Positions 23,929-62,400 of a stretch of DNA of 64,000 bases are shown here, in pieces. Position 1 is the first letter of the stretch. Each line of letters begins with the position of its first letter. The position numbers and the translations under genes are program-made. This stretch comes from Alphaproteobacteria bacterium. GTDB taxonomy: Bacteria > Pseudomonadota > Alphaproteobacteria > Sphingomonadales > Sphingomonadaceae. The DNA lies in the NCBI GenBank assembly GCA_005883305.1, contig VBAC01000002.1, forward strand, positions 178,527 to 242,526, read 5' to 3'. Under the pieces are notes generated by a model. The model saw nothing but the letters and a program-made list of their open reading frames with translations. It had not been told where the DNA came from and did not search any database.

Positions 23929-25389
23929 CTAGCGCGGCTGCGCCACGTCGAAGGCGATGCTCAGCCGCTCGCCCGCCGGGAACGGCAAGGTCGCGTGCCA
24001 CATGGTCGAGGGGAACAGCACCAGCCGTCCGGGCTTCGGCTCGACCGACCGAAGCGGCGGCAGATCGAGGCCGAGATCGTGGTGCGGCTGGCCGAGCGTC
24101 AGCCAGCCCTCCTGCCCCTGCGCCTTTTCCGGCACCGCGAGGTAGAAGGCCGAGCTCAGCCAGCCTTCCGGGTGGAAATGCGGATCGTGGTGGCCGGCGT
24201 CCGTCAGCCGCACCGACCACGAGCCGGAGAAGCGCACCGGCCGGTCGCGGCGCGCCTTGAGCGTCGGATGATCGGGATCGACCGGCGGGAGCTGCGCGAT
24301 ATGGCGCTCGACGGCGCCTTTGAGCAGGCGCCGGGCCGCCTCCAGCTCCGGCTCGATGCGGTTCAGCAAGTGACCCTCGGTCTGGGTGCCGCCGCGGACC
24401 GACTGGTGAAGGGGCTCGGCGACCGCCGTGTGGAGCGCTCGGGCGCGTTGCGCGAGACCGTCCGGAAGCTCCAGATCGAGGACCGAGACGAGCCGGTCGT
24501 CGCCTTCGAGCCAGGCGGCGCGCGCGGGATCGCTGAGGCGCCAGGCCGCGGACAGATAGGGCGTCACCTCGGGCGCGTCGGTCGCCAGCTTCGGCTCGAG
24601 CAAGGCCGCGGCCTGCTCCGGCCGCCCTCGCCGAAGCGCGTTGCGGGCGCGGCGGACGATCAGGTCGACCTCGTCGAAATGGGCGAGCGGCGCGAACAAT
24701 AGCTCGGCCCGCGCGTGATCGCCGAGCTCGTCGATGCAGATCGCCTCGTTGGCGTCGAAGGTCGGATGGGCGCCGGCCGCCGCGCGGGCGCGGGCGATCG
24801 CTTCGAGCGCATCGCCGAAGCGCAGAGCCCGGATCAGGCTGATGATCAGCTCGCGCCAAAGGAAGACGTCGCGCGGACGAAGCCGAAGGGCGCGATCGAA
24901 CGATTCGGTGATCCGCTTGGTCTCGCCGGCGGTGCAGACCAGTTGCACGCGATAGGCATGACCCTCGAGCCAGCCCGGATCGGCCGCCAGCATGGAATCG
25001 AGCCGGACCGCCGCCGCCGCCGGCCCCTGCTCCTGCTGGAGCGCCTCGATCATCCCCAGCCGCGCCGTATCGCGCGGCTCGATAGCGACAGCCCCCTCGT
25101 AAAGCGCGAGCGCGGGAAGCCCGGCCTCCAGCGCCACCCGGGCGTAAAGATGGGCGACTCCGAAATCGTCGGGCCAGAGCGAAGCGGCCTGGCGGCACGA
25201 CGCGACGGCGCTCGCCAGATCGCCCTCGGCGCGCTGGAGCAGCCCGCTGACGTGCCAGAGGCGCGGGTCGCCCGGGTTGAGGGCGCGCGCCGCGTCGAGC
25301 GCTTCGAGCGCCGAGCCCTCCCGCCCGGTGCCGAGCGCGGCCATCCCGGCCTGGTAGGCGGCATCGGCATCGGCCGGATCGACGATCAT
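23929..25389 (-). CDS. TPR-repeat protein fused to a PF13759-type (2OG-FeII_Oxy_5 / TIGR02466-like) putative 2OG-Fe(II) oxygenase ('Oxy-B')
   Basis: C-terminal HFHPEGWLSSAFYLAVP...PGRLVLFPSTMWHATLPF. N-terminal ~300 aa of Ala/Leu/Arg-rich TPR-like repeats. No signal peptide. ATGA overlap with the upstream gene. Confidence 0.75.
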   Translation of the reverse strand: MIVDPADADAAYQAGMAALGTGREGSALEALDAARALNPGDPRLWHVSGLLQRAEGDLASAVASCRQAASLWPDDFGVAHLYARVALEAGLPALALYEGAVAIEPRDTARLGMIEALQQEQGPAAAAVRLDSMLAADPGWLEGHAYRVQLVCTAGETKRITESFDRALRLRPRDVFLWRELIISLIRALRFGDALEAIARARAAAGAHPTFDANEAICIDELGDHARAELLFAPLAHFDEVDLIVRRARNALRRGRPEQAAALLEPKLATDAPEVTPYLSAAWRLSDPARAAWLEGDDRLVSVLDLELPDGLAQRARALHTAVAEPLHQSVRGGTQTEGHLLNRIEPELEAARRLLKGAVERHIAQLPPVDPDHPTLKARRDRPVRFSGSWSVRLTDAGHHDPHFHPEGWLSSAFYLAVPEKAQGQEGWLTLGQPHHDLGLDLPPLRSVEPKPGRLVLFPSTMWHATLPFPAGERLSIAFDVAQPR

Positions 25390-26933
25390 GTGGAATAACC
25401 CATTTTCTCGGCCCAGAACGCCAGGATCGGAAGCACCGGCGCCATCTGCGCCCGATACCGTTCCCAGCGCCCGCGCGCCCGTTTGTAGATCGGCTGCGCG
25501 ACCTGCGCGTAGCTCGGCGTGACGATCGGCCCGCGCTCGGCCGCGGTCGCTTCGTTGTCAAGCACCCGGTCGTTCCAGGGCAGGCCGAGGAACCCGAGGA
25601 GCGAGCGCATTTCCGCCCCCTTGTCCTCGACCAGATTCTCGTAGCGGAGCGTGTGAACGTCGAGCGGCAGGATTTCGCAGGCGCGTTCCCAGAAGGCGAG
25701 GGCGAGCGCGTAGAGCCGCGCCGAATCGGCGAGGTCGAGGAAGTTGGCCATCGCCGGATTGAGGTCGAAGGGCTGCATGAAGCACGAAAGAACGACGTCG
25801 CAGGGGTGTCGCGCGGCGAAGATGAACTTCGCGTCGGGAAAGAGGCGGTGGATGAGCGGCGCGCCGAGCAGGTTGAGCGGCAGCTTGTCGACCACCGTCC
25901 GCCCGTCCGCGGGGCCCAGCGCCTCGAAATAAAGGTCGCGCAGCCGCCGAGTCTCGGCCTCGTCCAGCCCGGGCAAGCGGGCGAAGTCGCCGAGCGCCGC
26001 TGCCGAACGCTCCAGAAGCGGCACCTCCTCGAGCACGTTCAGCGCCGGATGGCCCATCAGCAGCGTGTCGAGCAAGGTCGTTCCGGAGCGCGGAAAGCCG
26101 ACGAGAAAGACCGGCGCCGGCCGCTCCCCCGGCGCGACGGGAGTCCAGCGCGCGGCGTAATCCGGCGTCATCATCTCGGCCAGCGCCGCGACATGGGCGC
26201 GATAGGCGGCCGCCTGGCTCCGCACCGCCGGATCGGCCGCGCCCGCAAGCGCGTTCATCTCGGCATAGGCCGCGAAGGCGCGTGCTGGATCGCCCGCCTT
26301 GTCGGCCAGCCGCCCGATCAACGCCAAGCGCCGCGCCGGAACCTCGTCCGTCGGAATCGCCAGCGCCGCCGCCAGCGCTTCGCCCGCGCGGCCCTCGCGG
26401 TCGAGCGCAAGGGCGTTGAGATAGGGCAGGTCCAGCCCCCTCTCCGTCGCCTCGGCGATCAATGCGGGCAGGCGATCGAGCCGGTTGCCGCGCTCGAGCA
26501 TCTGCCCGCGCTCCAGCCAGGAGGCTTCGTGCGAGGGCGCCCGGCGATAGAGGCTTTCCGCCTCGTCGTAGCGCACCAGAGCGGAAAGGGCCCGTGCGAG
26601 ATCGAGCAGGACCGGCGAATCGCCCGGAAGATGGCCGGCCGCGGACAGCAAGGCGGCCGCCGCTTCGTCGGCGCGTCCAACCTGGGCCAGCGCCCCGGCG
26701 AAGTTGAATCGAACGCCGATCTCGCCGGGCCTCAGAGCCGCCGCCCTGGACAGCGCCGCCAGCGCTCCTTCGACATCCCCGGCGGAACGGCGCGCATTGC
26801 CGAGATTGTTCCAGATTTCCCAGTCGTCCGGCGCCGCCGCGACCACCGCCTCGTAGCGCTCCGCCGCCTCGGCATGGCGGCCGAGCGCCTGCAGCCGATA
26901 GCCCTCGGCGCGCAACCGACCGATGTCCGTCAC
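25386..26933 (-). CDS. TPR-repeat protein fused to a PAPS-dependent sulfotransferase domain ('ST-B')
   Basis: TPR consensus stretches (GRHAEAAERYEAVVAAAPDDWEIWNNLGNARRSAGD...). 5'-PSB motif GFPRSGTTLLDTLL and 3'-PB motif ARHPCDVVLSCF. GTGA overlap with the upstream gene. Confidence 0.8.
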   Translation of the reverse strand: MTDIGRLRAEGYRLQALGRHAEAAERYEAVVAAAPDDWEIWNNLGNARRSAGDVEGALAALSRAAALRPGEIGVRFNFAGALAQVGRADEAAAALLSAAGHLPGDSPVLLDLARALSALVRYDEAESLYRRAPSHEASWLERGQMLERGNRLDRLPALIAEATERGLDLPYLNALALDREGRAGEALAAALAIPTDEVPARRLALIGRLADKAGDPARAFAAYAEMNALAGAADPAVRSQAAAYRAHVAALAEMMTPDYAARWTPVAPGERPAPVFLVGFPRSGTTLLDTLLMGHPALNVLEEVPLLERSAAALGDFARLPGLDEAETRRLRDLYFEALGPADGRTVVDKLPLNLLGAPLIHRLFPDAKFIFAARHPCDVVLSCFMQPFDLNPAMANFLDLADSARLYALALAFWERACEILPLDVHTLRYENLVEDKGAEMRSLLGFLGLPWNDRVLDNEATAAERGPIVTPSYAQVAQPIYKRARGRWERYRAQMAPVLPILAFWAEKMGYST

Positions 26934-28804
26934 AGCCTATAGCCGAGCCGCTCGGCCCAGGGGGCGAGGATCGGCAGCACCGGGGCCATCTGCGCGCGGT
27001 AGCGCTCCCAGCGACCGACCGAGCGGGCGTAGAGCGGCTCGGTCACCTGCTTGTAGCTGGCGGTGGCGATATGCGTCCGCTTGGCGGCGGCGGCCTGGTT
27101 GTCTAGCACGCGTTCGTCCCAGGGAAGGCCGAGGAAATCGAGCAGCGCACGCATCTCCGTTTCCGGATCGGCGATCAGCCTTTCGTAGCGCAGGCTATGG
27201 ACGTGGATCGGAAGCAGGCTGCTCGCCCGGGTCCAGGAGTCGAGGACGATGTCGTAGAGCCGGGCCGCCCCTTCCAGCGTGGTGAAGCAGCGCATCGCCC
27301 GGTTGAGGGTGAAATTGGACGTGAAGCAGCTCAGCACCGCGTCGCACGGATGGCGCTCGACGAAGACGATCCTGGCCTCGGGGAACAGGCGGTGGATCAG
27401 CGCCACGCGCGCCATGTGAAGCGGGAATTTGTCGACGATCGTCTGGCCCGGGGCCGGAGGGGAAAGGGCGCGCAGGCGCTGGAAGTAGAGCGAGCGGAGG
27501 CCGTTCGCCTCGGCGTCGGTGAGCGAGGCGAGCCGCGCGTGCCCGCCAAGCGCCGCCTCGACCTCGGCGAGCGGCGGCATCTCTTCCAGCACGTGCAGCT
27601 GGGGGAGGTTCATCAGCAGCGTGTCGAGAAGGGTCGTTCCCGAGCGCGGGAAGCCCAGGACGAAGATCGGCGGCGGCGGATCGCGGTCCAGCGCCAGCGC
27701 CGGCCAGGAGGCGACCCACTCGGGCGTCAGCAGAGCGGCGTTGGCGCCCACTTCGGCGGCATAATCGGGGCCGAAATCCATCCCGGCCTTGGCGGCGAGC
27801 GCAGCCCGGTTCATCTCCGCGAAGGACTCGAAGGCGCGCGCGCTGTCTCCCAGCCGGTCGGCGATCTCGCCAATCAGCTGCGCCTTGCGCATCGGATCGA
27901 TCGAAAGGGGGGTCGCCTCGGCCAGCGGCAGCGCCTCGGCGAAGCGGCCTTGCCGGCGCAGCGCCCAGGCGCGAAGGAACCCGGCCTCCGCGCCTCCCGG
28001 CCCCTGCTTCCCGGCGAGATCGGCGAGCGCGGCCAGATCGTCCGTGCGGTTGAGGCTTTCGAGGAGGATGCCGAGCTCGAGATAGGGGCCGATGTCTTTG
28101 GGATCGAGGCGGATCGCCTGGCGGAAAGCGGCTTCCGCCGCCGCGAAATCGCCCGCCGCCGCTTCGGCGAGGCCGAGCTCGCTCTGCACGCGGGGGATTT
28201 CGGGGGAAAGGCGCGCCGCTTCGCGCATCAGCGCCCGCCGCTCGTCGACGCGCTCGCCGCGGTCGAGCACGCCCGAAAGATTGAGCACCATCTCGATCAT
28301 GTCGGGCCGAAGCCGGATCGCTTGCCTCAGCGCCGCGGCCGCGCGCCCCGTGTCGCCGAGCGCCGAGCGAACATTGCCGAGGTTGTTCCAGCTCTCCCAA
28401 TCGCCGGGCGTGGCGCGGACCACATCCTCGTAGGCGGCGGCGGCTTCGGCGTGCCGGCCCTGCTGCTGCCAGGCATAAGCGGCGATCCGGCGAAGGCGCG
28501 GGTCCGCCCCGCCCGCCTCGCAGATCCGCGCCGCCTCCGGCGCATCGCCCGAATCGAGCACGGCCGCCGCGAGATTGCAGCGCGCGGCGGAATCCCCGGG
28601 CCGAGCGTCCAGGGCGCGGCGGAAATGCGGGATTGCGCCTTTCGGATCTCCTGCCTGGGCGGCGGCGAGGCCGGCGAAGGCGCTGAGCTCGACATTGCCC
28701 GGATCGACGGCGAGCGCGGCCTCTGCCGCCGCGCGCGCCCCTGCGAGGTCGCCGCGGCGGTAGCGCTCGAGCGCCGGGGCGAGGCTTGGCGGTGGCGGGC
28801 TCAT
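26930..28804 (-). CDS. TPR-repeat protein fused to a PAPS-dependent sulfotransferase domain ('ST-A'), paralog of 25386-26933
   Basis: GFPRSGTTLLDTLL, ERHPCDAVLSCF, and a C-terminal stretch GRWERYRAQMAPVLPILA shared with the paralog. The ATG at 28804 (M24 of the track ORF) forms an ATGA overlap with the upstream stop. Confidence 0.8.
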   Translation of the reverse strand: MSPPPPSLAPALERYRRGDLAGARAAAEAALAVDPGNVELSAFAGLAAAQAGDPKGAIPHFRRALDARPGDSAARCNLAAAVLDSGDAPEAARICEAGGADPRLRRIAAYAWQQQGRHAEAAAAYEDVVRATPGDWESWNNLGNVRSALGDTGRAAAALRQAIRLRPDMIEMVLNLSGVLDRGERVDERRALMREAARLSPEIPRVQSELGLAEAAAGDFAAAEAAFRQAIRLDPKDIGPYLELGILLESLNRTDDLAALADLAGKQGPGGAEAGFLRAWALRRQGRFAEALPLAEATPLSIDPMRKAQLIGEIADRLGDSARAFESFAEMNRAALAAKAGMDFGPDYAAEVGANAALLTPEWVASWPALALDRDPPPPIFVLGFPRSGTTLLDTLLMNLPQLHVLEEMPPLAEVEAALGGHARLASLTDAEANGLRSLYFQRLRALSPPAPGQTIVDKFPLHMARVALIHRLFPEARIVFVERHPCDAVLSCFTSNFTLNRAMRCFTTLEGAARLYDIVLDSWTRASSLLPIHVHSLRYERLIADPETEMRALLDFLGLPWDERVLDNQAAAAKRTHIATASYKQVTEPLYARSVGRWERYRAQMAPVLPILAPWAERLGYRL

Positions 28805-30282
28805 GCCGGCCTCGCGACGTCGAACGCCACCGTCATCCGCTCGCCGGCCTCGAACGGCACCGTCCCGTGCCACATGGTCGATGGAAAGAGGACCAGCCGC
28901 CCCGGCTTCGGCTCCACGTAACGGAACGGCTCGAGGCCCAGCCCGAGCTCGGCTTGAGGCTCGCCGAGCTTCAGCCAGCCGGCATGGCCGTCGCCGGTGG
29001 GCGGCAGGGCGACGTAGAAGGCCGAGCTAAGCCAACCGGCCGGGTGGATGTGGTTGGAATGAAAGCCGGCGCCCGGCAGCCGCACCGACCAGGAGCCGGA
29101 GAAGCGAACCGGCGCCCGCCTGGCGATCAGGGTCGGGTGCCCCCCGATCGGGGCGGGCAACTGGGCGACGTGCCGCTCCACCGCCGAAACGATCACCGCG
29201 CGCAGCGCGCGTATCTCGGGCTCGATCCGGGCGAAAAGAGGGCCGTCGGTCTGGGTGCCGCCGCGCACCGATTGCTCGAGCGGCTGGTGCAGATTGTGGT
29301 GAAGGCCACGCAGCCTCTCGGCCAGCGCATCGAGCGACGGAATCCGATCGGCGAGATCGTAGACGCCGACCAGGCGCTCGTCCCCTTCCAGCCATTGCCA
29401 GCGCGGATCGCCGGTGAGCCGCCAGGCAGCTGCGACATAGGGCCAGAGGAAATCCGCCTCGGGAACCCCGAGCCAGGGCCGGGCGAAATCGGCCACCTGT
29501 TCCGGGCGGCCCGCCCGAAGCAGATGCCGCGCGTAACGCGTTGCCATGGCCACGTGCTGGATCGGGCCCAGAGCTGCGAACAGGACATCGGCCTGCTCGA
29601 TGTCCCCGGTTTCGGACGCGATGACCGTCTCCAGCGCATCGAACGCCGGATCGGAGCCGGCTGCCGTCCGGGCGCGGACGACCAGGGCGCGCGCCGCGTC
29701 GTAATCGCCCTGCTGCATGAGCGTCTCGACCCACTCGCGCCAGATGGCAACCTCCCGCGGCGCCTTTGCCACGGCGGTCGCGAAGCTCGCCGTGAAGGCC
29801 TCCGCTTCGCCTCGCAGCCAGCGCAGTCGGCAGAGGGTCTGATGGCCGGGCAACCATCCTGGATGAAGCCTTAGCTGTGCGTCCAGATCGCCTATCGCTG
29901 GGTCGATTTCCCCTTCGGCGAGCTGGGCCGCGGCGCGGCCGAGCATCACCGAGCCGTCATTGGGGGCGAGCGCGAGAGCGCGATCGAACAGCATCCGCGA
30001 CGGCAGGCCGGCTTCGAGCGTGCAGCGCGCCAGGCTGTGGGCTATCAGCGCGTCCGCAGGCGCGAGCGCCGCTGCCCTTTCGAACGCCGCGACGGCCGGT
30101 CCCATGTCCTCGAGTTTGCGATGGGCGAGGCCGAGCACCTGCCAGATTCGTGCGTCGCCGGGATGACGCTCCCGCGCCAGTTCGAGCAGCGGCAGCGCCT
30201 TTGCCTCCAGGCCCGATTTCACCGCCTTGGCCCCGACGGCGAAAACGGCGTCGGCATCTTCTGGACTGACGCGGCTCAGCAT
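28801..30282 (-). CDS. TPR-repeat protein fused to a PF13759-type putative 2OG-Fe(II) oxygenase ('Oxy-A'), paralog of 23929-25389
   Basis: HIHPAGWLSSAFYVALP...PGRLVLFPSTMWHGTVPF. The start at ATG 30282 has an AGGTGG SD 5 nt upstream and aligns with the paralog N-terminus. The longer track ORF (to 30402) would read through the hairpin. Confidence 0.75.
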   Translation of the reverse strand: MLSRVSPEDADAVFAVGAKAVKSGLEAKALPLLELARERHPGDARIWQVLGLAHRKLEDMGPAVAAFERAAALAPADALIAHSLARCTLEAGLPSRMLFDRALALAPNDGSVMLGRAAAQLAEGEIDPAIGDLDAQLRLHPGWLPGHQTLCRLRWLRGEAEAFTASFATAVAKAPREVAIWREWVETLMQQGDYDAARALVVRARTAAGSDPAFDALETVIASETGDIEQADVLFAALGPIQHVAMATRYARHLLRAGRPEQVADFARPWLGVPEADFLWPYVAAAWRLTGDPRWQWLEGDERLVGVYDLADRIPSLDALAERLRGLHHNLHQPLEQSVRGGTQTDGPLFARIEPEIRALRAVIVSAVERHVAQLPAPIGGHPTLIARRAPVRFSGSWSVRLPGAGFHSNHIHPAGWLSSAFYVALPPTGDGHAGWLKLGEPQAELGLGLEPFRYVEPKPGRLVLFPSTMWHGTVPFEAGERMTVAFDVARPA

Positions 30283-30297
30283 CGCCACCACCTGGCC

Positions 30298-30414
30298 GGG
30301 ACCTGCACTCATGCCCGGAGGTGGCCGTGATCGGCCGGAGAAGCCGGCTGGCAAGGAGGGCGGTGAAGGCCGGGCCCGCCCGTCACGACCGCCTCCGGGC
30401 ATGAGTGCAGGTCC
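30298..30414 (-). repeat. 117-nt inverted repeat (32-nt arms, 2 mismatches that could be G-U pairs, ~52-nt loop) filling the spacer between the beta-hydroxylase and Oxy-A genes
   Basis: Left arm 30298-30330 is gggacctgcactcatgcccggaggtggccgtga. The right arm 30383-30414 reverse-complements to ggacctgcactcatgcccggaggcggtcgtga. Confidence 0.8.
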
Positions 30415-30417
30415 TTT

Positions 30418-31599
30418 TCACAGGCCCTCCAGCGCATCGGCGGGATCCGACTCGGCGAGGATCGTTGCAACCGCCTCGCGCTCGGCCGACGAAAGATCCG
30501 GGTGCCACGTGTCGACGATGAGGATCACTCTAAGGGAATTGCTCGGGTTCATCGCTTCATGCTCGATCGTGTCGTCGAACACCCATGCCTTTCCGGCTTC
30601 CCACTCGCGCGTCTCCGCCCCGACCCTGAACCAGCACCCCGCCGGGACGATGAGCGGCAGGTGGCAGACGAGCCTGGTATTGGCGACTCCCGTGTGGGGC
30701 GGGATATGCGCCCCTGGCGCCAGCAGGGAGAACATCGCATTCGGGCCGCGCCGCGCTACGTTCGGCTGGGCGAGACCGCCGAGCAGCGCCATCGTCGCCG
30801 GGCAATGGCGCGCGTTCGCTTCGATCGTCACGCCGTTCTGGACGAGGTGGATCGCGGTCCAGGCCCGGTTGCGGTTGAGTTCCGCCCACTGTCTTAGCGG
30901 GACATCGTCCGGATATTGAACATAGGGGACCAGCTCAGCGAGCTCGGCGGCCATCACCCGTTCGAAATCGCCTCGAATGGACTGGGTCGCCTCCTCGAGC
31001 TGGCGGAGCCACGGGAAGAGCCGTCTTTCATGAAATTCGCGCTCCCGAAGGCCCGGATAGTGAAAATGGCTGGGCTCGCTGTGAAACGGGCGGGTCTTTC
31101 GCAGCACGTTGGTTTGAAAGCGCTCGAACCGCGCCCGCTCGTCCTCGTCCAGCGCCGCCTCGGCACCCGCGCTCGCGGCGCGAAAGCGCCCGGCGGTTTC
31201 GGCGAGATATTCCTCGTGCCGCCGCCGCGCTTCGGCCGTCAGGGCCGCAAGCGGCGCGGGCACCGGATCGGGGGCCTGGGCCAGCGCATGGCCGTACGTC
31301 TCTCCGGCCGCGCCGCTCCGGCCCATTCGATCCAGCAGATTCGCCTTGAGCAGCAACGGCATGAAACCGAGCGGATCGACGCGTAGGGCGCCCGACACCG
31401 CGTCCAACGCTCCCCCCAGATCCTGTGTCGCGCGGCACATCGCGGCGAGCTTCATCCAAAGGTCGATCCGGCCGGCCTCGACCGTGACCGCTTGCTCGAG
31501 CAGGCGCCGGGCGCCGGGCGCATCGCCCCCCTGGGCGGCGCGATCGGCCTGCGCCTCGAGAGCGGCGGCGGATGCTTGTGAATTCAGGCCTTGGTTCAC
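30418..31599 (-). CDS. TPR-repeat protein fused to an aspartyl/asparaginyl beta-hydroxylase domain (Asp_Arg_Hydrox, PF05118-like)
   Basis: C-terminal GAHIPPHTGVANTRLVCHLPLIVP...WEAGKAWVFDDTIEHEAMNPS..RVILIVD. The track start (TTG 31629) sits inside the terminator T-tract, so GTG 31599 is preferred. Start is uncertain. Confidence 0.78.
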   Translation of the reverse strand: MNQGLNSQASAAALEAQADRAAQGGDAPGARRLLEQAVTVEAGRIDLWMKLAAMCRATQDLGGALDAVSGALRVDPLGFMPLLLKANLLDRMGRSGAAGETYGHALAQAPDPVPAPLAALTAEARRRHEEYLAETAGRFRAASAGAEAALDEDERARFERFQTNVLRKTRPFHSEPSHFHYPGLREREFHERRLFPWLRQLEEATQSIRGDFERVMAAELAELVPYVQYPDDVPLRQWAELNRNRAWTAIHLVQNGVTIEANARHCPATMALLGGLAQPNVARRGPNAMFSLLAPGAHIPPHTGVANTRLVCHLPLIVPAGCWFRVGAETREWEAGKAWVFDDTIEHEAMNPSNSLRVILIVDTWHPDLSSAEREAVATILAESDPADALEGL

Positions 31600-31626
31600 G
31601 GGGCGCTTTCTAGCGCGGCTGGCCCG

Positions 31627-31658
31627 CAAAAGAAAACGGCGGGCCGAAGCCCGCCGTC
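31627..31658 (-). terminator. rho-independent terminator directly after the TonB-dependent receptor gene
   Basis: Minus strand reads cGGCGGGC-TTCG-GCCCGCCg followed by TTTTCTTTTG, about 25 nt after the receptor stop (31681-31683). Confidence 0.8.
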
Positions 31659-31680
31659 GAGTTTTTGGAAGTGTCTCGCC

Positions 31681-34600
31681 TTAGAAGTCGAGAGACACGC
31701 CGGCGAAGATGTAGCGGCCGAGCGCGTCGTACACCTGGGTGTAGGCGTTGCCGTTACAGATGCCCGCCGGGCAGGCGTTGCTGCCGACGAGCGGCGGATC
31801 GCGGTCGAACAGGTTATTGACGCCCAGGCGGAAGTTGTAGTGGTCGCCGATCCGGGCCGTCAGGGTCAGATCGATGTAGGACTGCGACGGGATCCTGGCA
31901 TCGGCCGGACGGAGACCGTTGAGCTGCGCCGTGGTCGGCGTGGCGCCGCCGGCGAAGTTCAGCGAGTCGTTCGGGCTCAGCAGGTCCAGATCGACCCCCG
32001 AGAAATACCGCCAGCGGGCGCTCAGCCCGATGCCGTCAGGCAGGTTCCAGGTCACGCGGAACTGGTGCCTCCACTCGGGGCTCGGAGTGCCGCACTGCGT
32101 GCCGAAATAGCCCGTGCAGTCGTAGGGAGTCGACACGCCGTTGTCGGTGATCAGGCGATCCAGCCAGGTGCCGACGAAGTTGAAGCCGAGACCGCCCCAT
32201 CCTTCGCTGATCTCCATGCTGTAGCTCGCCTGGATGTCGATGCCGCGGGTCTTCTTCTCACCGATGTTGATCGAAAGATCGCTGACATAGCCATTCGACG
32301 TCCTCCACAGCGAGCCGAACTGGTCGCGGTGAACGAGGCCGCAGAAGGTCGGATCGAGTGTGGCGGCGCAGGTCGCGAGGATCGTGTCGGCGCCGACGCC
32401 CTGGATGAACGAGTCGACCTGAATGTCGAACCAGTCGACCGACAGAGCGAAGCGCGGCAGGAAGGTCGGCTGGAACACGAATCCGACGGTCCAGGTATCC
32501 GCGACTTCCGGATCGAGGTTCGGGTTGCCGCCGATCAGGCCGTTATACTGCGACGCCTGGTTCGGCTGGATGGCGCCGAACTGGGCCGCGGTGACGCCCA
32601 TCGCCTGGCAGGCGGCCAGGTTGGCACCGCCGGCCACCACGCCGCCGACTACGCCGATGCCCGCGCAGGGATCGGTGCTGCCGTCGAGAACGACGCGCTG
32701 GGGAGCGAACAGCTCCTGGATGTTCGGAGCGCGAACGGCGCGGTTGTAGGCGGCGCGGAAACGGATGTCGCGGATCGGCGCCAGGTCGAGGCCGATCTTG
32801 TAGGCATCCGTGCTCACGCTGCGGGCACCAAGGCCGTAATCAGAGTAGCGATAGCCGGCCTCGAGCGAGAAGTTGTACAGGAACCCCTCCTCGACGATCG
32901 GGATGCGGACCTCGGCGAAGGCTTCCTTGACGTCGAAGCTGCCGTTGACCGGAAGCGTCGGGGCGCCCTGGCCGGCGAGGTCGCTCGACGGAAGCGTCGA
33001 GAAGGCCTGGTCGACGAGAAGCTCCAGCGATTCCTTGCGATACTCGAGGCCGAAGGCGACGCCGACGCCGGACTGCGCCCAGGGAAGCTGGATGCCCCAG
33101 CCGCCGAGGTTGCCCGTGATCGACGCGTTGGCGACGGTCTCCTGGTTCACGCCGCGCTGCAGGCCCGGGGTCTGCAGGTAGGTGAGAGCCGCGGGATTGA
33201 CGGCGTTGAGAGCGAAAATGTCCCAGGGAACGCAGCTCGGATCCGATCCGTCCAGGACCGCGCGGCAGATCGGCTGGACGCCGGCCACGCGCGGATCGTC
33301 GATGACGTCGAGCGCGAGGCCGAGACGGCGGACCGAGAAGTCGTTCGAGTAGGTCTCGGCGAAGTTCGTTTGACCGAACTGGTAGTACATGTCGTACGAC
33401 CAGACATCGTCCAGATCGCCGCGCATGCCGGCGACGATGCGGTAGCTGGTGTGCTGCAGGTCGTCGCGGCGGCCGCCGCCTTCGACGTTGCGGCGCAGCG
33501 GCTGGAGCACAGCGCGGTTATAGGGCGTGCCGGTGGTCGGATCGATGAACACGGCCGGAGGCGGCACGGGCGCGCCCGGGCCGCGGTTGGCATTGACCGA
33601 CAGGCCGTCGGCGGCGAGCAGGTTGCCCGGAGCGCAGACGATGGCGCGCTCCTGAGCGGACATCAGCGGGTTGTCGCAGTTGATGTTCAGCGTGTTGCCG
33701 AAGTTGCCCGACGGAGCGATCTGGGCGACCGTGCGGTCGTCCATGAACATCACTTCCATGTAGGGCTTCAGCGCTTCGCTGATCTCATAGCTGGCGAAGG
33801 CGCCGAGCACGTAGCGCTCGTCGGGGCGCTGATAAAAGTTGGTCGGCGCGAAGTTGTAGGGCGTCGAGCCGGGGATGAAGGTCCGGTTCGGCCCGACCTG
33901 GAACGTTCCGGTGTTCGTGAAGAACGTGCCGTTCGCCGAGGTGCCGGAGCCGCCGCAGGTGAAGTCCGTGGTGCCCGCTGCGCCGCCGGTGCCGACGCCG
34001 GCGGCGATCTGGCCGGCCGTGCGCGACGTGAGGGCGCAGGAGCTGTAGTCGCGCCGGCCCTGGGTGATCTGGTCGGTGTGACGGTAGCCGGCATAAGCGA
34101 GGACGTGGCCGCGGCCGTCGTCGAAGGCCGCGCCGATCGCGAGATTGGCATCCCAGGTGCCGCCGTCGGCGACGTTGCCCGTCGGATAGCCGAACCGCCT
34201 GTTCGGAGCGTCGAGAGCGGCGAGGACCGAAGTCCGCGCGCTGTTCTCATGCTGGAAGAAGCTGTACTGCGAATCGACGCGGACGCCGGTGAAATCGGTG
34301 TCCATGACGAAGTTGACGACGCCGGAGACGGCGTCCGAGCCGTAGACCGAGGAGGCGCCGCCGGTCAGCACGTCGACGCGCTGGATCATCATCGCGGGGA
34401 TGAAGTTGATGTCCGCGAACGGAACCGACGGATCGCCCGGGACGAGGCGGCGGCCGTTGATCAGGACGAGGGTGCGGGCCGGGCCGAGGTTGCGAAGATC
34501 GAGGGTCGCGGTGCCCGAAGCGCCGTTCGAAACGGTGCTGCTCTGGCCGGCGAAGACCTGCGGCAGCGAGTTGACGAGATCCTCGGCGCGGACCGTGCCG

Positions 34601-34836
34601 GTCGCGCGGACCTCTTCGCTGTTGACGGCGGTGACGGGGCTGACCGAGGTGAGGTTCGGCTGGCGGATGCGCGAACCGGTGATGGTGATCGCCGGCTCTT
34701 CCTGAGCCACGGCTTCGACGGGGCCGGCCTGGGGCTGCTGATCGTTCTGCGCGAACGCGGGCGTTGCAACGCCCGCCGTGCCACAGATGATCGTCGTGGC
34801 GAGCAGGTTGCTCAGAAACTGATTCTTGTACCTCAT
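31681..34836 (-). CDS. TonB-dependent outer-membrane receptor (1051 aa)
   Basis: Signal peptide ending PAFAQ. TonB-box/plug region AITITGSRIRQ...LDLRNLGPARTLVLINGRR. Long beta-barrel with aromatic-rich strands. C-terminal ...YIFAGVSLDF with terminal Phe. Confidence 0.9.
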   Translation of the reverse strand: MRYKNQFLSNLLATTIICGTAGVATPAFAQNDQQPQAGPVEAVAQEEPAITITGSRIRQPNLTSVSPVTAVNSEEVRATGTVRAEDLVNSLPQVFAGQSSTVSNGASGTATLDLRNLGPARTLVLINGRRLVPGDPSVPFADINFIPAMMIQRVDVLTGGASSVYGSDAVSGVVNFVMDTDFTGVRVDSQYSFFQHENSARTSVLAALDAPNRRFGYPTGNVADGGTWDANLAIGAAFDDGRGHVLAYAGYRHTDQITQGRRDYSSCALTSRTAGQIAAGVGTGGAAGTTDFTCGGSGTSANGTFFTNTGTFQVGPNRTFIPGSTPYNFAPTNFYQRPDERYVLGAFASYEISEALKPYMEVMFMDDRTVAQIAPSGNFGNTLNINCDNPLMSAQERAIVCAPGNLLAADGLSVNANRGPGAPVPPPAVFIDPTTGTPYNRAVLQPLRRNVEGGGRRDDLQHTSYRIVAGMRGDLDDVWSYDMYYQFGQTNFAETYSNDFSVRRLGLALDVIDDPRVAGVQPICRAVLDGSDPSCVPWDIFALNAVNPAALTYLQTPGLQRGVNQETVANASITGNLGGWGIQLPWAQSGVGVAFGLEYRKESLELLVDQAFSTLPSSDLAGQGAPTLPVNGSFDVKEAFAEVRIPIVEEGFLYNFSLEAGYRYSDYGLGARSVSTDAYKIGLDLAPIRDIRFRAAYNRAVRAPNIQELFAPQRVVLDGSTDPCAGIGVVGGVVAGGANLAACQAMGVTAAQFGAIQPNQASQYNGLIGGNPNLDPEVADTWTVGFVFQPTFLPRFALSVDWFDIQVDSFIQGVGADTILATCAATLDPTFCGLVHRDQFGSLWRTSNGYVSDLSINIGEKKTRGIDIQASYSMEISEGWGGLGFNFVGTWLDRLITDNGVSTPYDCTGYFGTQCGTPSPEWRHQFRVTWNLPDGIGLSARWRYFSGVDLDLLSPNDSLNFAGGATPTTAQLNGLRPADARIPSQSYIDLTLTARIGDHYNFRLGVNNLFDRDPPLVGSNACPAGICNGNAYTQVYDALGRYIFAGVSLDF

Positions 34837-34969
34837 GTCGGTCCCCTTAGATCGGCCGCGGCCGTGATTCGTGCACCGGACAGAATCCGGTGGTGCAGAC
34901 TGCGTTTAGGGGATGAAACGAATCCGACGCAATCGGGACGGGCTCGGCGTCCCGCCATTTTTGCCCGGC

Positions 34970-34985
34970 GTGGCAAAATTGCCAC
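34970..34985. promoter_or_regulatory. 16-bp palindrome GTGGCAA-AA-TTGCCAC in the divergent promoter region upstream of the TonB-dependent receptor
   Basis: Perfect 7+7 inverted repeat about 135 nt upstream of the receptor ATG (34836) and about 100 nt upstream of the divergent gene (35084). Operator-like, but the binding protein is unknown. Confidence 0.4.
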
Positions 34986-35083
34986 AATGCGAAACGCGGC
35001 TCCGCGAGGCTTGCGCAACCCCGGCGCCGTCCGCCATACCCTGCTTTCGACAGCCTAACAGACCTGGGAATGGGACCGCCATC

Positions 35084-35644
35084 ATGTCACGCAAGCCGCT
35101 CTTGCTCGCCGCCGTCATGCTCGGCCTCGTATCCGCCGCTTACGCGCAGGGCGGCGATCCCGCGCCGCAGGCTAAGCAGAATCAGGCGCGGCCCGAGCTG
35201 TTCGAGGCGCTCGTCCGATGCCGTGCGATTTCCGGGGACGCCGAGCGGCTGCGCTGCTTCGACACGGCCTCCGCAGCGCTCGAGCAGGCGGCGGAACGGC
35301 GCGAGCTGGTCGTCGTCGATCGCGCCCAGGTCCGCGAAAGCCGGCGCCGGCTGTTCGGCCTCGCTTTGCCGAGCCTGCCGATCTTCGGCGGCGGCGACGA
35401 CAGCCAGGCGGCGGAGGACGAGGTGACCTCGCTCGAGGGGACCGTGGCCTCGGCCAGCCAGGACAGCCTCGGCCACTGGATGGTCCGCCTCGCCGACGGC
35501 AGCCTGTGGGTGCAGACCGACAACCGCCAGCTTGCGCTTCGCCCGCGAAACGGCCAGCCCGTGGTGATCAACCGCGCCGCGCTCGGCTCCTACATGATGC
35601 GGGTCAACAACCAGCCGGGCGTCAGGGTGCGCCGCCAGCTCTAG
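35084..35644 (+). CDS. secreted hypothetical protein (186 aa)
   Basis: Internal ATG at 35084 gives MSRKPLLLAAVMLGLVSAAYAQ (signal peptide). Two Cys in CRAISGDAERLRC. No family recognised. Confidence 0.6.
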   Translation: MSRKPLLLAAVMLGLVSAAYAQGGDPAPQAKQNQARPELFEALVRCRAISGDAERLRCFDTASAALEQAAERRELVVVDRAQVRESRRRLFGLALPSLPIFGGGDDSQAAEDEVTSLEGTVASASQDSLGHWMVRLADGSLWVQTDNRQLALRPRNGQPVVINRAALGSYMMRVNNQPGVRVRRQL

Positions 35645-59487: not shown

Positions 59488-62400
59488 TCAATAATCCTTG
59501 TGGTAGCGGATGCTCGCATTGTTCGAGGCGTTGGTGCTGAACTGCGAGAGCAGGCTGAGCGAGCGCGAGAGCGAGATTTCGAGCTGGGTCGCGGTGAAGC
59601 CCTTGGCGTCGGTGATGATCTCCACATAGATGTCGTCGCTGAGGTACATGCCGGCGGCGACCGCCGTCCCGCGCCCGGTGGCGCTATCGGCCTCGATCAG
59701 CCGCAGCCGGTCGATCCCGGTCGCCGAGCGAAGCTGGCCGAGCGGGTTGAGGCCGCCGCTGCCGCCGCGCAAGGAGTTGAGCGAAGCGGCGAGCTGGACC
59801 GCCTGAAGCGCGGAAATCTGGGTGACCGAGCTGCCGAACAGGATCCGCGCCATCACCTCGTCCTGCGGAAGCGAGGGCGAGGAAGTGAAGGCGATCTGCG
59901 GGTTGTTGGCACGCCCGCTGACGTTGATCGTCACGTTCACATCCTCGATCTCGGCTGTCGCGGCGAGATCGATCTGCGGGTTGGGCGGCCGGCTGCCGAG
60001 GAAGGCGATATGGCCCTGGTCCACCCGGAACCTGCGTCCCGCGAGGCCGAGCGTGCCGCGGATCAGGTCGATATTGCCGACGAGCGCCGGCGTCGCCGTG
60101 GTGCCCTGGACGGCAAGCTCGGCACGCCATTCGGATTCCAGGCCCATCCCCGAGACGAACACGCGATTGTTCGCGTTGAGCCGGATGTCGAGCCGCCACA
60201 CGCTCGGCAGCGCGTCGTCCGCCTCCTGCTCGCCCGGCGGCCGGAGCGGCTCGCCGCGGCGGCGCACCCCGGCGAGTTGCGGCACCTCGGCCGCGGCCTG
60301 GCGGACGATCTGGTAGCGGGCCTCGCCGAGCTCGAGCGTTCCGCTGATCACCGCGCCCTGGGCATTGTTGACGATCGCCAGATTGCCGGTCGCCGTCGCG
60401 GCGAGATCGTCGCTTCGCGCGAGCCGGGCGTTCTGGAAGGCCAAGCGAAGGTCGATCGGATAGCCCGCGGCCGAAGCCAGGCCGATGCTCCCCCGCCCCT
60501 CGATCGTGCCGTCCCCGGCGCGGCCGGCGAGGCGGACGATCTCGAGCCGGGAGGCGTTGAAGCGCCCGTCGATTGCAAGGTTGGTGATCCGGGTGCCGTA
60601 AGTCTCGTTGTGGTAGGTCAGATCGTTGGCGCGGACCACGCCGGTCAGTTGCGGCTGCTGGACCCGGCCGGAGAAATCGGCGGCGATGGCGATCGGGCCG
60701 GTCAGCTGGTGGCCCGGCATGTTGACGAACGACATCGGTACGTCCGCGGGCCCGTTGTAGCGCACGCCGCCGGCGAGCGGCGCCGCGAGCAGCCGGGTCG
60801 TCCACGATCCGGCGGCCGGGCCGAGCGGCTGAAGCCGGGCCTGGAGGCGGCCGATCACGGCGCCGCCGCGGCGGATGACCGCGCCCATCTGCCCGCCCTC
60901 AGGACGCAGGCTTCCGGCCAGGAACAGGTCGACCGGGGCGGAGCGGACCGCGATTCCGGTGCGGGTGAAGTTGGCGACGTTGATCCGCGCCTCGGCGCGC
61001 GGGAAGCTGCCGTCCGCGGCTTGCGAGAAATCGAGGCTGCCGGTCGCCTGCCCGCCGAGGCCGAGGCCGGGCGAGAAGGCGTTGAGCATCGACAGATCGA
61101 AGCTGTCGAGCCGCGACTGGATGACGAGGCCGTCGCCCCACGTGCCGGCAAGGCGGATTCGTCCGCGGTCGAGCGCCACGGTGAGCGGCTGAAGCCGCCA
61201 TTCGCCGCCGGCGCGGCGGATCACCGCTGGCTGGGCGAAGCGGAAGCCGATGGCGTTGATCTGTCCCTGCGCGGCGGCGCGGATCATGTCCGGCGAGGCG
61301 ACCGCGTTGGCGGCGATTCGGAACGGCACGCCGCTGCGCCCTTCGGCGAAGAGCTGGACCGGCCCGCTGCCGCCGGTGAGATCGGCCCGGATCCGCGCCC
61401 GCTGGACGAACAGCGCGCCGCTCCTGAGGCCGGCAAGCTGCGCGTCGCCCCGGATGGTCGGCTGCGGCGAGAGGATGATCGTCGCGTTGACGATGGCCCG
61501 CTGGATCAGGATCGGCACCTGCCCCGGGGTGCGCGCGCCATTGGCCGTCGCGGCGATGTCTATCCGCTGGTAGCGCCCGGCGGCGCCAAGCCGGACGACT
61601 CCGTCCAGCCCCTGCCCGGCCATGGTCAGCTCGCCCGCGAAGGGCCCCGCAGCGGTGCGCACGAGGCGGCCGCGGAAGTCGATCCCGGCGAAGGTCAGCC
61701 GGTTGACGGCGATGGTCATCGGCCCGCGTCCGCTCAGCACGCGCACGTCGGCTGTGAACGGCCCGTAAGCCGAATCGCCGCGCGCGAGGATCGCCCAGCC
61801 TCCCGCGACCGCGCGGACATTGGCGGTGACGTGGGCAAGGCCGATGCCGAAGCCCGGATTGGCCGCCTCCAGCGCGACCTGCGGCGCCCGCGCCGACCCG
61901 GTGACGTGGACCGACAGCGCGCCATAAGCGTCGCTGACGCCGTTGAAGCGCAAGTCGAGGCTGCCGTCGCGCCGGTAGAGGCCGCCCCCCGAGGCGACGT
62001 GGAGGTCGGGCGATGCGAGACGCACATTCGCCACCCGCACCAGCCCGTTGGGCTCCATCGCCAAGCGCGCCGTGATCGTCGCGTCGCCGCCGAGCAGGCC
62101 GCGGATCGTGTCGTTGTCGATCCGCCGGCTGCGCGCCGCCACGCGCCCGGTCAGCCCGAAGCCGGCCGGTGAGCTGGTCATGTCGAGATCGGTGTTGACG
62201 TCGAACAGGCCGACGCCGTTGACCAGGTAATTGTTCACCCGCCCCTGAAGCGCGGCGAGGTAGCGGCCGGCGGCGAGATCGAAGGCGAGCGCGAGCCGGG
62301 CGTTCACCCGGTCCGAGCGAAGGATCATGTTGTCGGAGACGAGCCGGGTGCCGGCGATGCCGACCTGCCCGTCGAGGCGGATGTCGCGCAAGGTTCCGCC

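Follow-up and report, generated by a model that had tools for sequence, protein, structure and literature searches.

On what do the enzymes act when the gene for a TonB-dependent receptor (TBDR) is followed by genes for cytoplasmic hydroxylases and sulfotransferases? The question is raised by six co-directional minus-strand open reading frames (ORFs) in a stretch of 64 kb (~69% G+C) from a metagenome-assembled genome (MAG) labelled Alphaproteobacteria bacterium; this whole stretch is referred to below as the window. The six ORFs encode, in order of reading, a TBDR, an AspH-like oxygenase, a putative oxygenase (OXY_A), two sulfotransferases (ST_A and ST_B) and a second oxygenase (OXY_B). A previous interpretation made from the DNA letters alone (the sequence-only reading) had taken the enzymes to work on a common peptide or protein-like substrate, giving a hydroxylated and sulfated molecule that is taken up or sensed through the receptor. 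The analysis described here leads to a different and tentative answer, to which we give somewhat less than an even chance: the five enzymes may be protein modifiers, guided by tetratricopeptide repeats (TPR), that act on an exported protein encoded in cis, here the receptor itself, before its export.

The receptor gene and the five enzymes encoded behind it

The coordinates of the six genes (Table 1) are those of the sequence-only reading, and the gene calls of the cluster are identical in the public record of the MAG. All catalytic domains score above the Pfam gathering cutoffs, so that every domain assignment made from the letters alone stands. By sequence comparison, OXY_A and OXY_B are 50% identical over their full length, and ST_A and ST_B are 49% identical. 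The five enzymes are cytoplasmic, with neither a signal peptide (as had been read) nor a hydrophobic segment (maximum 19-residue Kyte-Doolittle mean below 1.5), and they share a eukaryote-like plan in which a substrate-binding TPR array precedes the catalytic domain. The last four genes overlap their neighbours by 4 nt (ATGA/GTGA/ATGA), and the overlaps of ST_B with the genes on both sides suggest translational coupling.

Table 1. Features of the receptor-enzyme cluster and its surroundings, with positions in the 64-kb window
Feature	Position	Strand	Remarks
TonB-dependent receptor (TBDR), 1051 aa	31681..34836	-	Pfam Plug + TonB_dep_Rec_b-barrel
TPR-fused AspH-like 2-oxoglutarate (2OG) oxygenase, 393 aa	30418..31599	-	PF05118
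OXY_A, TPR-fused PF13759 putative 2OG-Fe(II) oxygenase, 493 aa	28801..30282	-	PF13759 + TPR
ST_A, TPR-fused TPST-like sulfotransferase, 624 aa	26930..28804	-	PF13469 + TPR
ST_B, TPR-fused TPST-like sulfotransferase, 515 aa	25386..26933	-	PF13469 + TPR; paralogue of ST_A
OXY_B, TPR-fused PF13759 oxygenase, 486 aa	23929..25389	-	PF13759 + TPR; paralogue of OXY_A
Intrinsic-terminator-like hairpin, GACGGCGGGC-TTCG-GCCCGCCGT + T-run	31625..31658 (hairpin 31635-31658)	-	between TBDR and AspH-like gene
116-nt hairpin element	30299..30414	.	23-nt perfect inverted repeat GGACCTGCACTCATGCCCGGAGG; within the 135-nt gap between AspH-like gene and OXY_A
Palindrome TGTGGCAATTTTGCCACG	34969..34986	-	~150 nt upstream of TBDR start
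unk186, divergent secreted protein, 186 aa including signal peptide (~160 aa mature)	35084..35644	+	signal peptide in sequence

The sulfotransferases contain the domain PF13469 (Sulfotransfer_3; ST_A, 6e-37 and 128 bits; ST_B, 8e-35 and 122 bits; cutoff 27 bits) together with matches to many TPR models. The closest solved relatives of the domain are human TPST1 and TPST2 (E ~1e-13 to 1e-11); the catalytic domain of ST_A aligns end to end with TPST1 (E 2e-13), and its alignment with the CurM sulfotransferase is partial (7e-8). The 5'-phosphosulfate-binding motif (GxPRSGTT) reads GFPRSGTTLL in the window and GVPRSGTTLM in TPST1, and the 3'-phosphate-binding motif (R...S) reads RHPCDAVLS in ST_A and RHPCDVVLS in ST_B against RDGRASVHS in TPST1. 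The catalytic residues, in window and TPST1 contexts respectively, are LEEMP/GEETR (Glu), DKFP/NKDP (Lys) and SYKQV/STDQV (Ser); they are invariant in nine homologues, and we take them to be E99, K158 and S285 in TPST2 numbering. A block of the form YE.L...PE..MR.LL.FL..PW is also common to ST_A and TPST1. The likeness to TPST1/2, and to the bacterial RaxST discussed below, thus lies in a PF13469 domain that is aligned over its full length with TPST and keeps the residues that bind the sulfate donor 3'-phosphoadenosine 5'-phosphosulfate (PAPS) as well as those of catalysis, whereas the N-terminal TPR array of 260-370 aa is absent from both TPST and RaxST. The sulfate acceptor could be Tyr or a hydroxyl group made by the oxygenases. 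The TPR-sulfotransferase family is large (7,350 clusters at 50% identity, E<=1e-30), and among giant homologues checked for fusions only tandem (TPR-ST)x2 proteins were found. The idea of a docking module shared by the enzymes and defined by sequence was dropped, because the TPR arrays of the different enzyme classes have no detectable similarity.

The AspH-like protein contains PF05118 (Asp_Arg_Hydrox; 1e-43, 149 bits, cutoff 22.6) and matches the oxygenase domain of human AspH with an E value of 2e-27. Its H302, H347, R357 and H313 align with H679, H725, R735 and H690 of human AspH, so that the two His ligands of iron (HxG...H), the 2OG-binding Arg and His690 are all kept. In an AlphaFold2 (AF2) model (pLDDT 84), some six helix pairs of TPR type lead through a long linker helix into a double-stranded beta-helix at the C-terminus. 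A Foldseek comparison of this model with the TPR and oxygenase region of human AspH (5JQY-type chains) gave an E value of 1e-17 over 374-383 columns, and the oxygenase domain alone superposes on human AspH with a TM score of 0.84 and a root-mean-square deviation (rmsd) of 2.5 A. Both proteins, human AspH (PDB 5JQY and others) and that of the window, thus join a PF05118 oxygenase to a TPR array on its N-terminal side. They differ in that the window protein is bacterial and cytoplasmic, with no membrane anchor or endoplasmic reticulum context, in the orientation of the domains in the model (overall rmsd ~14 A), in the replacement of R688 by Val, and in that no substrate domain or consensus site like that of epidermal growth factor (EGF) lies near the window protein. 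Many relatives, among them Allosphingosinicella loci (e.g. L007 1102-2331, L008 1135-2370), have an extra TPR-AspH paralogue, ~50% identical in the catalytic domain, between DUF2093 and M23 peptidase genes and outside the array downstream of the TBDR; this paralogue is absent from the window.

The two remaining enzymes belong to PF13759 (2OG-FeII_Oxy_5; OXY_A, 4e-20 and 72.5 bits; OXY_B, 1e-20 and 74.1 bits; cutoff 27), and both miss the cutoff of the subfamily TIGR02466 (41.9 and 37.5 vs 62.5 bits). Their putative metal motif, H-I-H...H with R.T.AF, is invariant in 53 homologues, and PDB entries 2rg4/3bvc, both from structural genomics, carry matching HxH...H and R.S.SF motifs; by this motif, PF13759 oxygenases are not textbook HxD/E...H enzymes. 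The window proteins share a homologous catalytic domain and these motifs with PF13759/TIGR02466 proteins (PDB 2RG4, 3BVC; cyanophage 2OG oxygenases), which are stand-alone proteins of ~200 aa, whereas the window domain is preceded by a TPR array of ~300 aa. The best whole-chain analogues of the AF2 model of OXY_A (pLDDT 92, pTM 0.89) are AspH TPR+Oxy, OGT, SPINDLY and P3H1, all of which are protein modifiers. A search for anti-phage defence matched no PADLOC family, giving only a generic 2OG-domain match for both oxygenases (E 1e-5 to 2e-4). The TPST1/2 alignment, the AspH model match and the analogues of OXY_A together support the view, already taken in the sequence-only reading, that these are enzymes of a protein- or peptide-modifying type.

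The receptor has Plug (PF07715; 7e-18, 65.5 bits, cutoff 23.9) and barrel (PF00593; 6e-36, 125.6 bits, cutoff 27) domains, with five conserved Cys pairs and a barrel region of 22-strand type. A signal peptide (MRYKNQFLSNLLATTIICGTAGVATPAFA/Q), a TonB-box-like sequence (PAITITGSRI) and a C-terminal Phe (...SLDF) are present in its sequence. It reaches the cutoff of none of the NCBIfam receptor subfamilies (TonB-hemin, 77.8 vs 316.9 bits; TonB-siderophor, 43.8 vs 223.5; BtuB, 68 vs 836), and the siderophore, haem and B12 receptor models match its plug region only.

Conservation and genomic context

A scan with the sulfotransferase alignment, covering one genome per GTDB species, returned 80 loci from Allosphingosinicella, Sphingomonas, Sphingopyxis, Sphingobium, Novosphingobium and Rhizorhabdus, all of them Sphingomonadales because the scan patterns fell in the TPR region; breadth beyond the order was assessed from representative clusters, one metagenome scan and PLSDB plasmids. 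Orthologues of the TBDR (49-88% identity) occupy the same chromosomal position across Sphingomonadales, in the syntenic block PurD-XseA-(extra TPR-AspH)-M23-unk186-TBDR-{enzymes}-ClpB-M16-PurK. Enzymes stand directly behind the orthologous TBDR in 57 of the 59 species-level loci with a complete downstream region, and all three enzyme classes are present in 49 of the 59. Their arrangement varies (ASPH-OXY-ST in 21 loci, ST-ASPH-OXY in 13, OXY-ST-ASPH in four, ST alone in four), and there are at least 12 orders or copy numbers overall, including expanded arrangements such as the ASPH-OXY-ST-ST-OXY of the window. The shuffling of gene order with adjacency kept, together with the occurrence of fusions, argues that the enzymes are functionally coupled to one another and to the receptor gene, and the shared synteny means that the 59 loci are not independent events.

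Between the receptor gene and the first enzyme gene lies a terminator-like element (10-bp G+C-rich stem, tetraloop and T-run) that begins 22 nt past the TBDR stop codon, and the GTG start of the AspH-like gene follows ~26 nt beyond it. Of 68 loci compared at this position (~62 distinct relatives plus records identical to the window), 64 have a hairpin with a T-run no more than 110 nt from the TBDR stop, and the stem sequences vary by genus. The distance from TBDR stop to first enzyme start has a median of 83 nt, whether an AspH-like, sulfotransferase or oxygenase gene comes first. Owing to this terminator, the six genes probably do not form one plain operon without a break, and the start of the first enzyme gene lies so close behind it that there is little room for a separate promoter; a sigma-70 promoter scan of the cluster gave nothing exceeding shuffled sequences. 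From this layout we infer an abundantly expressed first gene with attenuated read-through into the genes downstream.

A tblastn search for replicas among annotated plasmids and chromids gave two gammaproteobacterial cases. The 1002-aa TBDR of Pseudoalteromonas sp. NC201 belongs to the same subfamily as that of the window, to which it is 30% identical over its whole length (E 2e-116), with the conserved Cys pairs kept; behind it come genes for a TPR-PF13759 protein of 618 aa and an AspH-like protein of 387 aa. On a plasmid of Catenovulum adriaticum (NZ_CP109966.1, record 191732-211012, locus L184), a LacI-regulated sucrose/fructan locus with GH32, amylosucrase and major facilitator superfamily (MFS) genes includes an unrelated 822-aa TBDR, behind which come a terminator-like hairpin, a TPR-PF13759 gene whose product is 38.6% identical to OXY_A, and a tryptophan-halogenase homologue. 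The sequence-only reading had named sphingomonads among the groups with such neighbourhoods and had looked to co-conservation of receptor and enzymes in relatives as a test of its proposal; the occurrence in sphingomonads is confirmed, Alteromonadales can be added, and the linkage is kept in the sphingomonad loci as well as in the gammaproteobacterial replicas.

Exported proteins recur beside more distant members of the sulfotransferase family. A Porin_4 gene adjoins three of six distant TPR-sulfotransferase representatives (33-37% identity), and one such representative (L095 10001-14291) is followed by a 747-aa TPR-methyltransferase, with flagellin and flagellar genes ~10 kb away. The metagenome scan yielded 80 diverse loci, and an unbiased Pfam census of the 149 ORFs within ~1.2 kb of the sulfotransferase in 66 non-sphingomonad loci counted other TPR proteins (13 ORFs), PF13759 (6), Porin_4 (5), methyltransferases (5) and GT41 of the OGT/HMW1C family (4). 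Porin ORFs number 11 in 314 kb of flank (~35/Mb), in at least five lineages, against a rough expectation of our own of 1-5/Mb; the association was noticed post hoc with a biased query lineage and is taken as supporting evidence only.

An exported-protein neighbour was also found in five of seven annotated plasmid contexts. In Comamonas endophytica (plasmid NZ_CP106882.1, record 507460-524173, locus L178), genes for a giant cadherin-domain protein, a TPR-sulfotransferase (878 aa), TolC, ABC and HlyD components and cysC form an apparent operon, whose rax-like layout suggests a sulfated adhesin of a type I secretion system (T1SS). An autotransporter gene precedes the TPR-sulfotransferase by a 36-nt gap in Thalassospira marina, and autotransporter genes are divergent from it in Pacificitalea manganoxidans; in Azospirillum argentinense, sulfotransferase and GT9 genes are convergent with IalB and autotransporter genes, and in Paroceanicella profunda a flagellin gene is divergent from the sulfotransferase gene within a flagellar cluster. 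The two contexts with no exported neighbour are those of Methylovirgula sp. HY1 and Novosphingobium sp. EMRT-2. The presence of exported-protein genes beside TPR-sulfotransferases outside the sphingomonad clade points to the neighbouring exported protein as a substrate rather than as a transporter.

Several other features of the region were examined. The gene unk186 stands upstream of, and divergent to, the TBDR gene in nearly all related loci; its product matches no Pfam family (only a weak N-terminal VasI-like match, E 0.016). The gene is a constant companion of the TBDR gene and possibly a part of the system. The divergent intergenic region common to the two genes contains the palindrome of Table 1, whose TGT-N12-ACA core is kept upstream of the orthologous receptor in many Sphingomonadales genera and is followed after ~45 nt by a conserved TTTACA, features that make it a candidate operator for a regulator. 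The 116-nt hairpin between the AspH-like and OXY_A genes has a predicted RNA minimum free energy of -95.8 kcal/mol (z -7.8) and occurs once in the window. In relatives L007-L009 the AspH-like and oxygenase genes overlap and the hairpin is absent, which marks it as a lineage-specific insertion, probably a REP/MITE-like element outside the system; a role as precursor or regulatory RNA of the system was rejected on the same ground. An Rfam search of the whole window found two tRNAs only, with no riboswitch upstream of the receptor, and no further copy of an enzyme or of a TPR arm was found elsewhere in the window. The cluster is flanked by housekeeping genes (ClpB, M16 and M23 peptidases, XseA, PurD, PurK, pyruvate kinase, CobST, H+-PPase and TamB). 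The TamB homologue (1397 aa; window 59488-63681, minus strand), of the translocation and assembly module that serves outer-membrane proteins, lies 25 kb from the cluster, probably by coincidence. Among the larger ORFs of the window, a Pfam scan found no regulator, permease, exporter or PAPS-synthesis gene, which agrees with the lack of a regulator, inner-membrane permease and PAPS-synthesis gene reported from sequence alone.

What the enzymes may act on

The mechanism that we tentatively favour can be set out as follows. The five cytoplasmic enzymes would comprise a beta-hydroxylase of AspH type, PF13759 oxygenases and PAPS-dependent sulfotransferases of TPST type, and the TPR superhelix of each would hold an unfolded protein or peptide segment, as in OGT, human AspH, collagen hydroxylases and Caulobacter FlmG. 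All five would act on one common substrate, either the TBDR precursor or a different envelope protein synthesised alongside it. Hydroxylation and then O-sulfation would take place in the cytoplasm, ahead of Sec export, and partial read-through of the conserved terminator would set a high ratio of substrate to enzymes. That the substrate is common, as the sequence-only reading had also supposed, is supported by proteins of ~1000 aa in some relatives (P0065, P0087, P0100) that unite a sulfotransferase and a PF13759 domain, and by the 4-nt gene overlaps. From the character of the enzymes and their neighbours, we infer a protein rather than a small molecule as substrate, which would be modified by hydroxylation first and sulfation second, with the receptor as the likeliest candidate. 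A wider form of the proposal, in which TBDRs and by extension porins, autotransporters and T1SS adhesins of many Proteobacteria are hydroxylated and sulfated before export, and halogenated where tryptophan-halogenase neighbours occur, is doubtful as a generalisation, with a chance that is real and well below even.

Several observations weigh against modification of the receptor. No EGF-like AspH site (C-x-[DN]-x4-[FY]-x-C) is present in the TBDR, unk186 or the enzymes, such a site occurs in only 6 of 63 TBDR orthologues, and only two Tyr residues of the window TBDR were found in an acidic context, although these scans of the receptor are uninformative. The terminator could equally mean that receptor and enzymes are expressed independently. 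The survey of sphingomonad loci started from the sulfotransferase and would have passed over any receptor orthologue that lacks the enzymes. Stand-alone paralogues of the TPR-sulfotransferases occur among unrelated housekeeping genes in sphingomonad genomes, and several distant TPR-sulfotransferases have no exported neighbour. The porin association, real in several lineages, is post hoc and is set against a background rate of our own estimation. PF05118 also holds the lipid hydroxylases LpxO and OlsC, and PF13469 also holds sulfotransferases that act on substrates other than proteins, such as that of CurM. For none of the members of these families has a modified residue, a shift in mass or an enzymatic activity been observed.

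The idea that the enzymes tailor a ligand, that is, hydroxylate or sulfate a peptide or amino-acid-derived metabolite, perhaps like a siderophore or a ribosomally synthesised and post-translationally modified peptide (RiPP), that is released and then bound or imported by the receptor, is unlikely on the present evidence. It draws on the resemblance of the receptor and tailoring-enzyme layout to siderophore and methanobactin loci, on the siderophore-like product that Iyer et al. predicted for TonB-receptor/dioxygenase/halogenase/sulfotransferase neighbourhoods (PMC2938197), and on lasso-peptide clusters of Sphingomonadales that include genes for sulfotransferases and Asp beta-hydroxylases (PMC10040529). 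However, the gaps of the cluster (4-nt overlaps, the 81-nt terminator spacer and the hairpin insertion) contain no precursor-peptide gene, and no conserved small ORF was evident in relatives, where the search for small ORFs was not exhaustive. Neither in the window nor in ~60 relatives was a non-ribosomal peptide synthetase (NRPS), ligase or protease detected, and no sizeable precursor ORF, core synthetase, exporter or inner-membrane permease was detected in the ~60 sphingomonad loci. A RiPP leader peptidase, a RiPP recognition element and a dedicated exporter were likewise absent from the Pfam-scanned ORFs of the window and from the flanks in relatives. The components of a carbohydrate-utilisation (CUT/PUL-like) TBDR locus, namely an inner-membrane transporter, degradative enzymes and a regulator, are also absent from the window. 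The receptor falls far below the siderophore-receptor models, and a large TPR array on each enzyme is unusual for small-molecule tailoring. In Catenovulum a close TPR-PF13759 homologue stands behind a different TBDR whose likely ligand is a sugar, and tailoring-type enzymes in such a sugar-uptake locus are hard to reconcile with ligand biosynthesis. The sequence-only reading is thus retained in its domain identities, its protein-type enzymes, its co-conservation and its common substrate, and is not supported in the uptake or sensing of the product by the receptor, against which stand the lack of detected precursor, biosynthesis, export and inner-membrane transport genes, the sucrose/fructan locus and the exported-protein neighbours found elsewhere.

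Modification of the receptor or of another protein encoded in cis must also be weighed against the possibility, to which we likewise assign a small share of the probability, that the enzymes act in trans and are unrelated to the receptor. Their substrates would then be cytoplasmic or exported proteins encoded elsewhere, and their position between XseA/M23 and ClpB would be inherited synteny, perhaps with weak read-through providing low constitutive expression. The order-wide synteny of the PurD...PurK block, which deprives most of the 60 loci of independence, would fit this, as would the terminator behind the TBDR, the stand-alone paralogues among housekeeping genes and the size of the TPR-sulfotransferase family, which is mostly not receptor-linked. 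It fits less well with independent rearrangements that keep some enzyme gene right behind the terminator, with TBDR/TPR-oxygenase replicas in unrelated contexts in Gammaproteobacteria, and with the exported-protein neighbours in most of the annotated plasmid contexts.

It is quite improbable that the AspH-family enzyme is an acyl 2-hydroxylase like LpxO or OlsC and that the acceptor of the sulfotransferases is an imported compound or a lipid or glycolipid of the outer membrane, which is rich in sphingolipids: OlsC (1e-26) and LpxO (6e-14) are the best named NCBIfam matches of the AspH-like protein, some orthologues are named OlsC by JGI, a relationship to the CurM sulfotransferase, whose substrate is a hydroxy-acyl group, can be detected, and a gene of the sterol-desaturase family precedes the TPR-sulfotransferase gene on the Novosphingobium sp. 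EMRT-2 plasmid, but the AspH-like protein failed the equivalog test (OlsC, 93.3 vs 450 bits; LpxO, 51.9 vs 500 bits) and has no hydrophobic segment that could serve as a membrane anchor, its catalytic domain is equally close to human AspH and its whole architecture matches AspH, the TPST match is far better than that to CurM, and protein substrates are indicated by the TPR arrays as well as by neighbours of GT41, autotransporter and adhesin type.

Known systems and significance

Adhesins and autotransporters are glycosylated before Sec export in the HMW1C (GT41)/HMW1, Aah/AIDA-I and TibC/TibA systems. In these systems, as in that of FlmG and the flagellins, the gene for a soluble enzyme adjoins that of its substrate, which is modified while still unfolded and not yet exported; GT41 genes and autotransporters also recur as neighbours of the TPR-sulfotransferases. 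The modification in those systems is glycosylation, whereas here it would be hydroxylation and sulfation, with a TBDR as the candidate substrate. We know of no described case in which a TonB-dependent receptor is hydroxylated or sulfated. FlmG is a further parallel in its use of a TPR domain for substrate binding: it joins TPR to a glycosyltransferase, and the TPR part binds flagellins, which are glycosylated in the cytoplasm (PMC7591256).

With regard to sulfation, no prokaryotic tyrosine sulfotransferase other than RaxST has, to our knowledge, been characterised biochemically. RaxST, described as the first to be so characterised, is a cytoplasmic enzyme whose substrates are the locally encoded, exported peptide RaxX and, reportedly, Omp1X, a porin-like protein; T1SS and PAPS genes lie close by (PMC4892823). 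The window differs from the RaxST system (RaxX, RaxABC and PAPS genes) in having no RaxX-like peptide, T1SS or PAPS gene, whereas the Comamonas locus, with its adhesin, TPR-sulfotransferase, T1SS and cysC, mirrors the rax layout and may give experiments on the family a cleaner start than the window cluster would.

The closest published precedent is computational. Iyer, Abhiman, de Souza and Aravind described in 2010 neighbourhoods of TonB-receptor, tryptophan-halogenase, SapC and dioxygenase genes and predicted for them a halogenated, siderophore-like metabolite (PMC2938197). In those neighbourhoods, from alpha- and gammaproteobacteria, a TBDR is likewise followed by cytoplasmic tailoring enzymes, including 2OG oxygenases like Syn9-gp52/54 (of PF13759 type), beta-hydroxylases and sulfotransferases (PMC2938197). 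The sphingomonad cluster differs in having no halogenase, SapC or JmjC protein and in the fusion of every enzyme to TPR; the Catenovulum locus, with its TBDR, TPR-PF13759 protein and tryptophan halogenase, forms a bridge between the two. Neither Sphingomonadales nor its genera are mentioned in the 2010 paper (PMC2938197), the genes of the cluster are unmentioned in Blanvillain 2007, and full-text literature searches returned nothing on the cluster or on TPR-sulfotransferases. Since the domain fusions are already annotated in databases (e.g. as "putative 2OG-Fe(II) oxygenase") and the association of TonB receptors with dioxygenases and sulfotransferases was noted in 2010, the finding is not categorically new. 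What appear to be new are the sphingomonad cluster, its terminator-attenuated architecture, the gammaproteobacterial replicas and the TPST- and AspH-like character of the enzymes, and also the family-wide association with exported proteins and the hypothesis of hydroxylated and sulfated outer-membrane receptors.

TPR-fused sulfotransferases thus make up a very large bacterial family, of which no characterised member was found. Their function could well be tested on the sphingomonad cluster, which is conserved and compact and occurs in cultivable strains of Sphingomonas, Sphingopyxis, Sphingobium, Novosphingobium and Rhizorhabdus, among others. If the proposed function is true, there would be a testable answer to the presence of oxygenase, halogenase and sulfotransferase genes beside TBDR genes, formerly read as siderophore tailoring, and the result would agree with the origin in bacterial systems that Iyer et al. 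2010 proposed for the peptide-modifying hydroxylases and sulfotransferases of eukaryotes. Bacterial surface proteins would then bear eukaryote-like sulfotyrosine and hydroxy-Asp/Asn, with possible changes to ligand binding, to recognition by phages and colicins, to immune or host-receptor mimicry, and to identification by mass spectrometry. In its wider form, the proposal would add a widespread and so far undescribed layer of post-translational modification to the outer-membrane proteins of many Proteobacteria.

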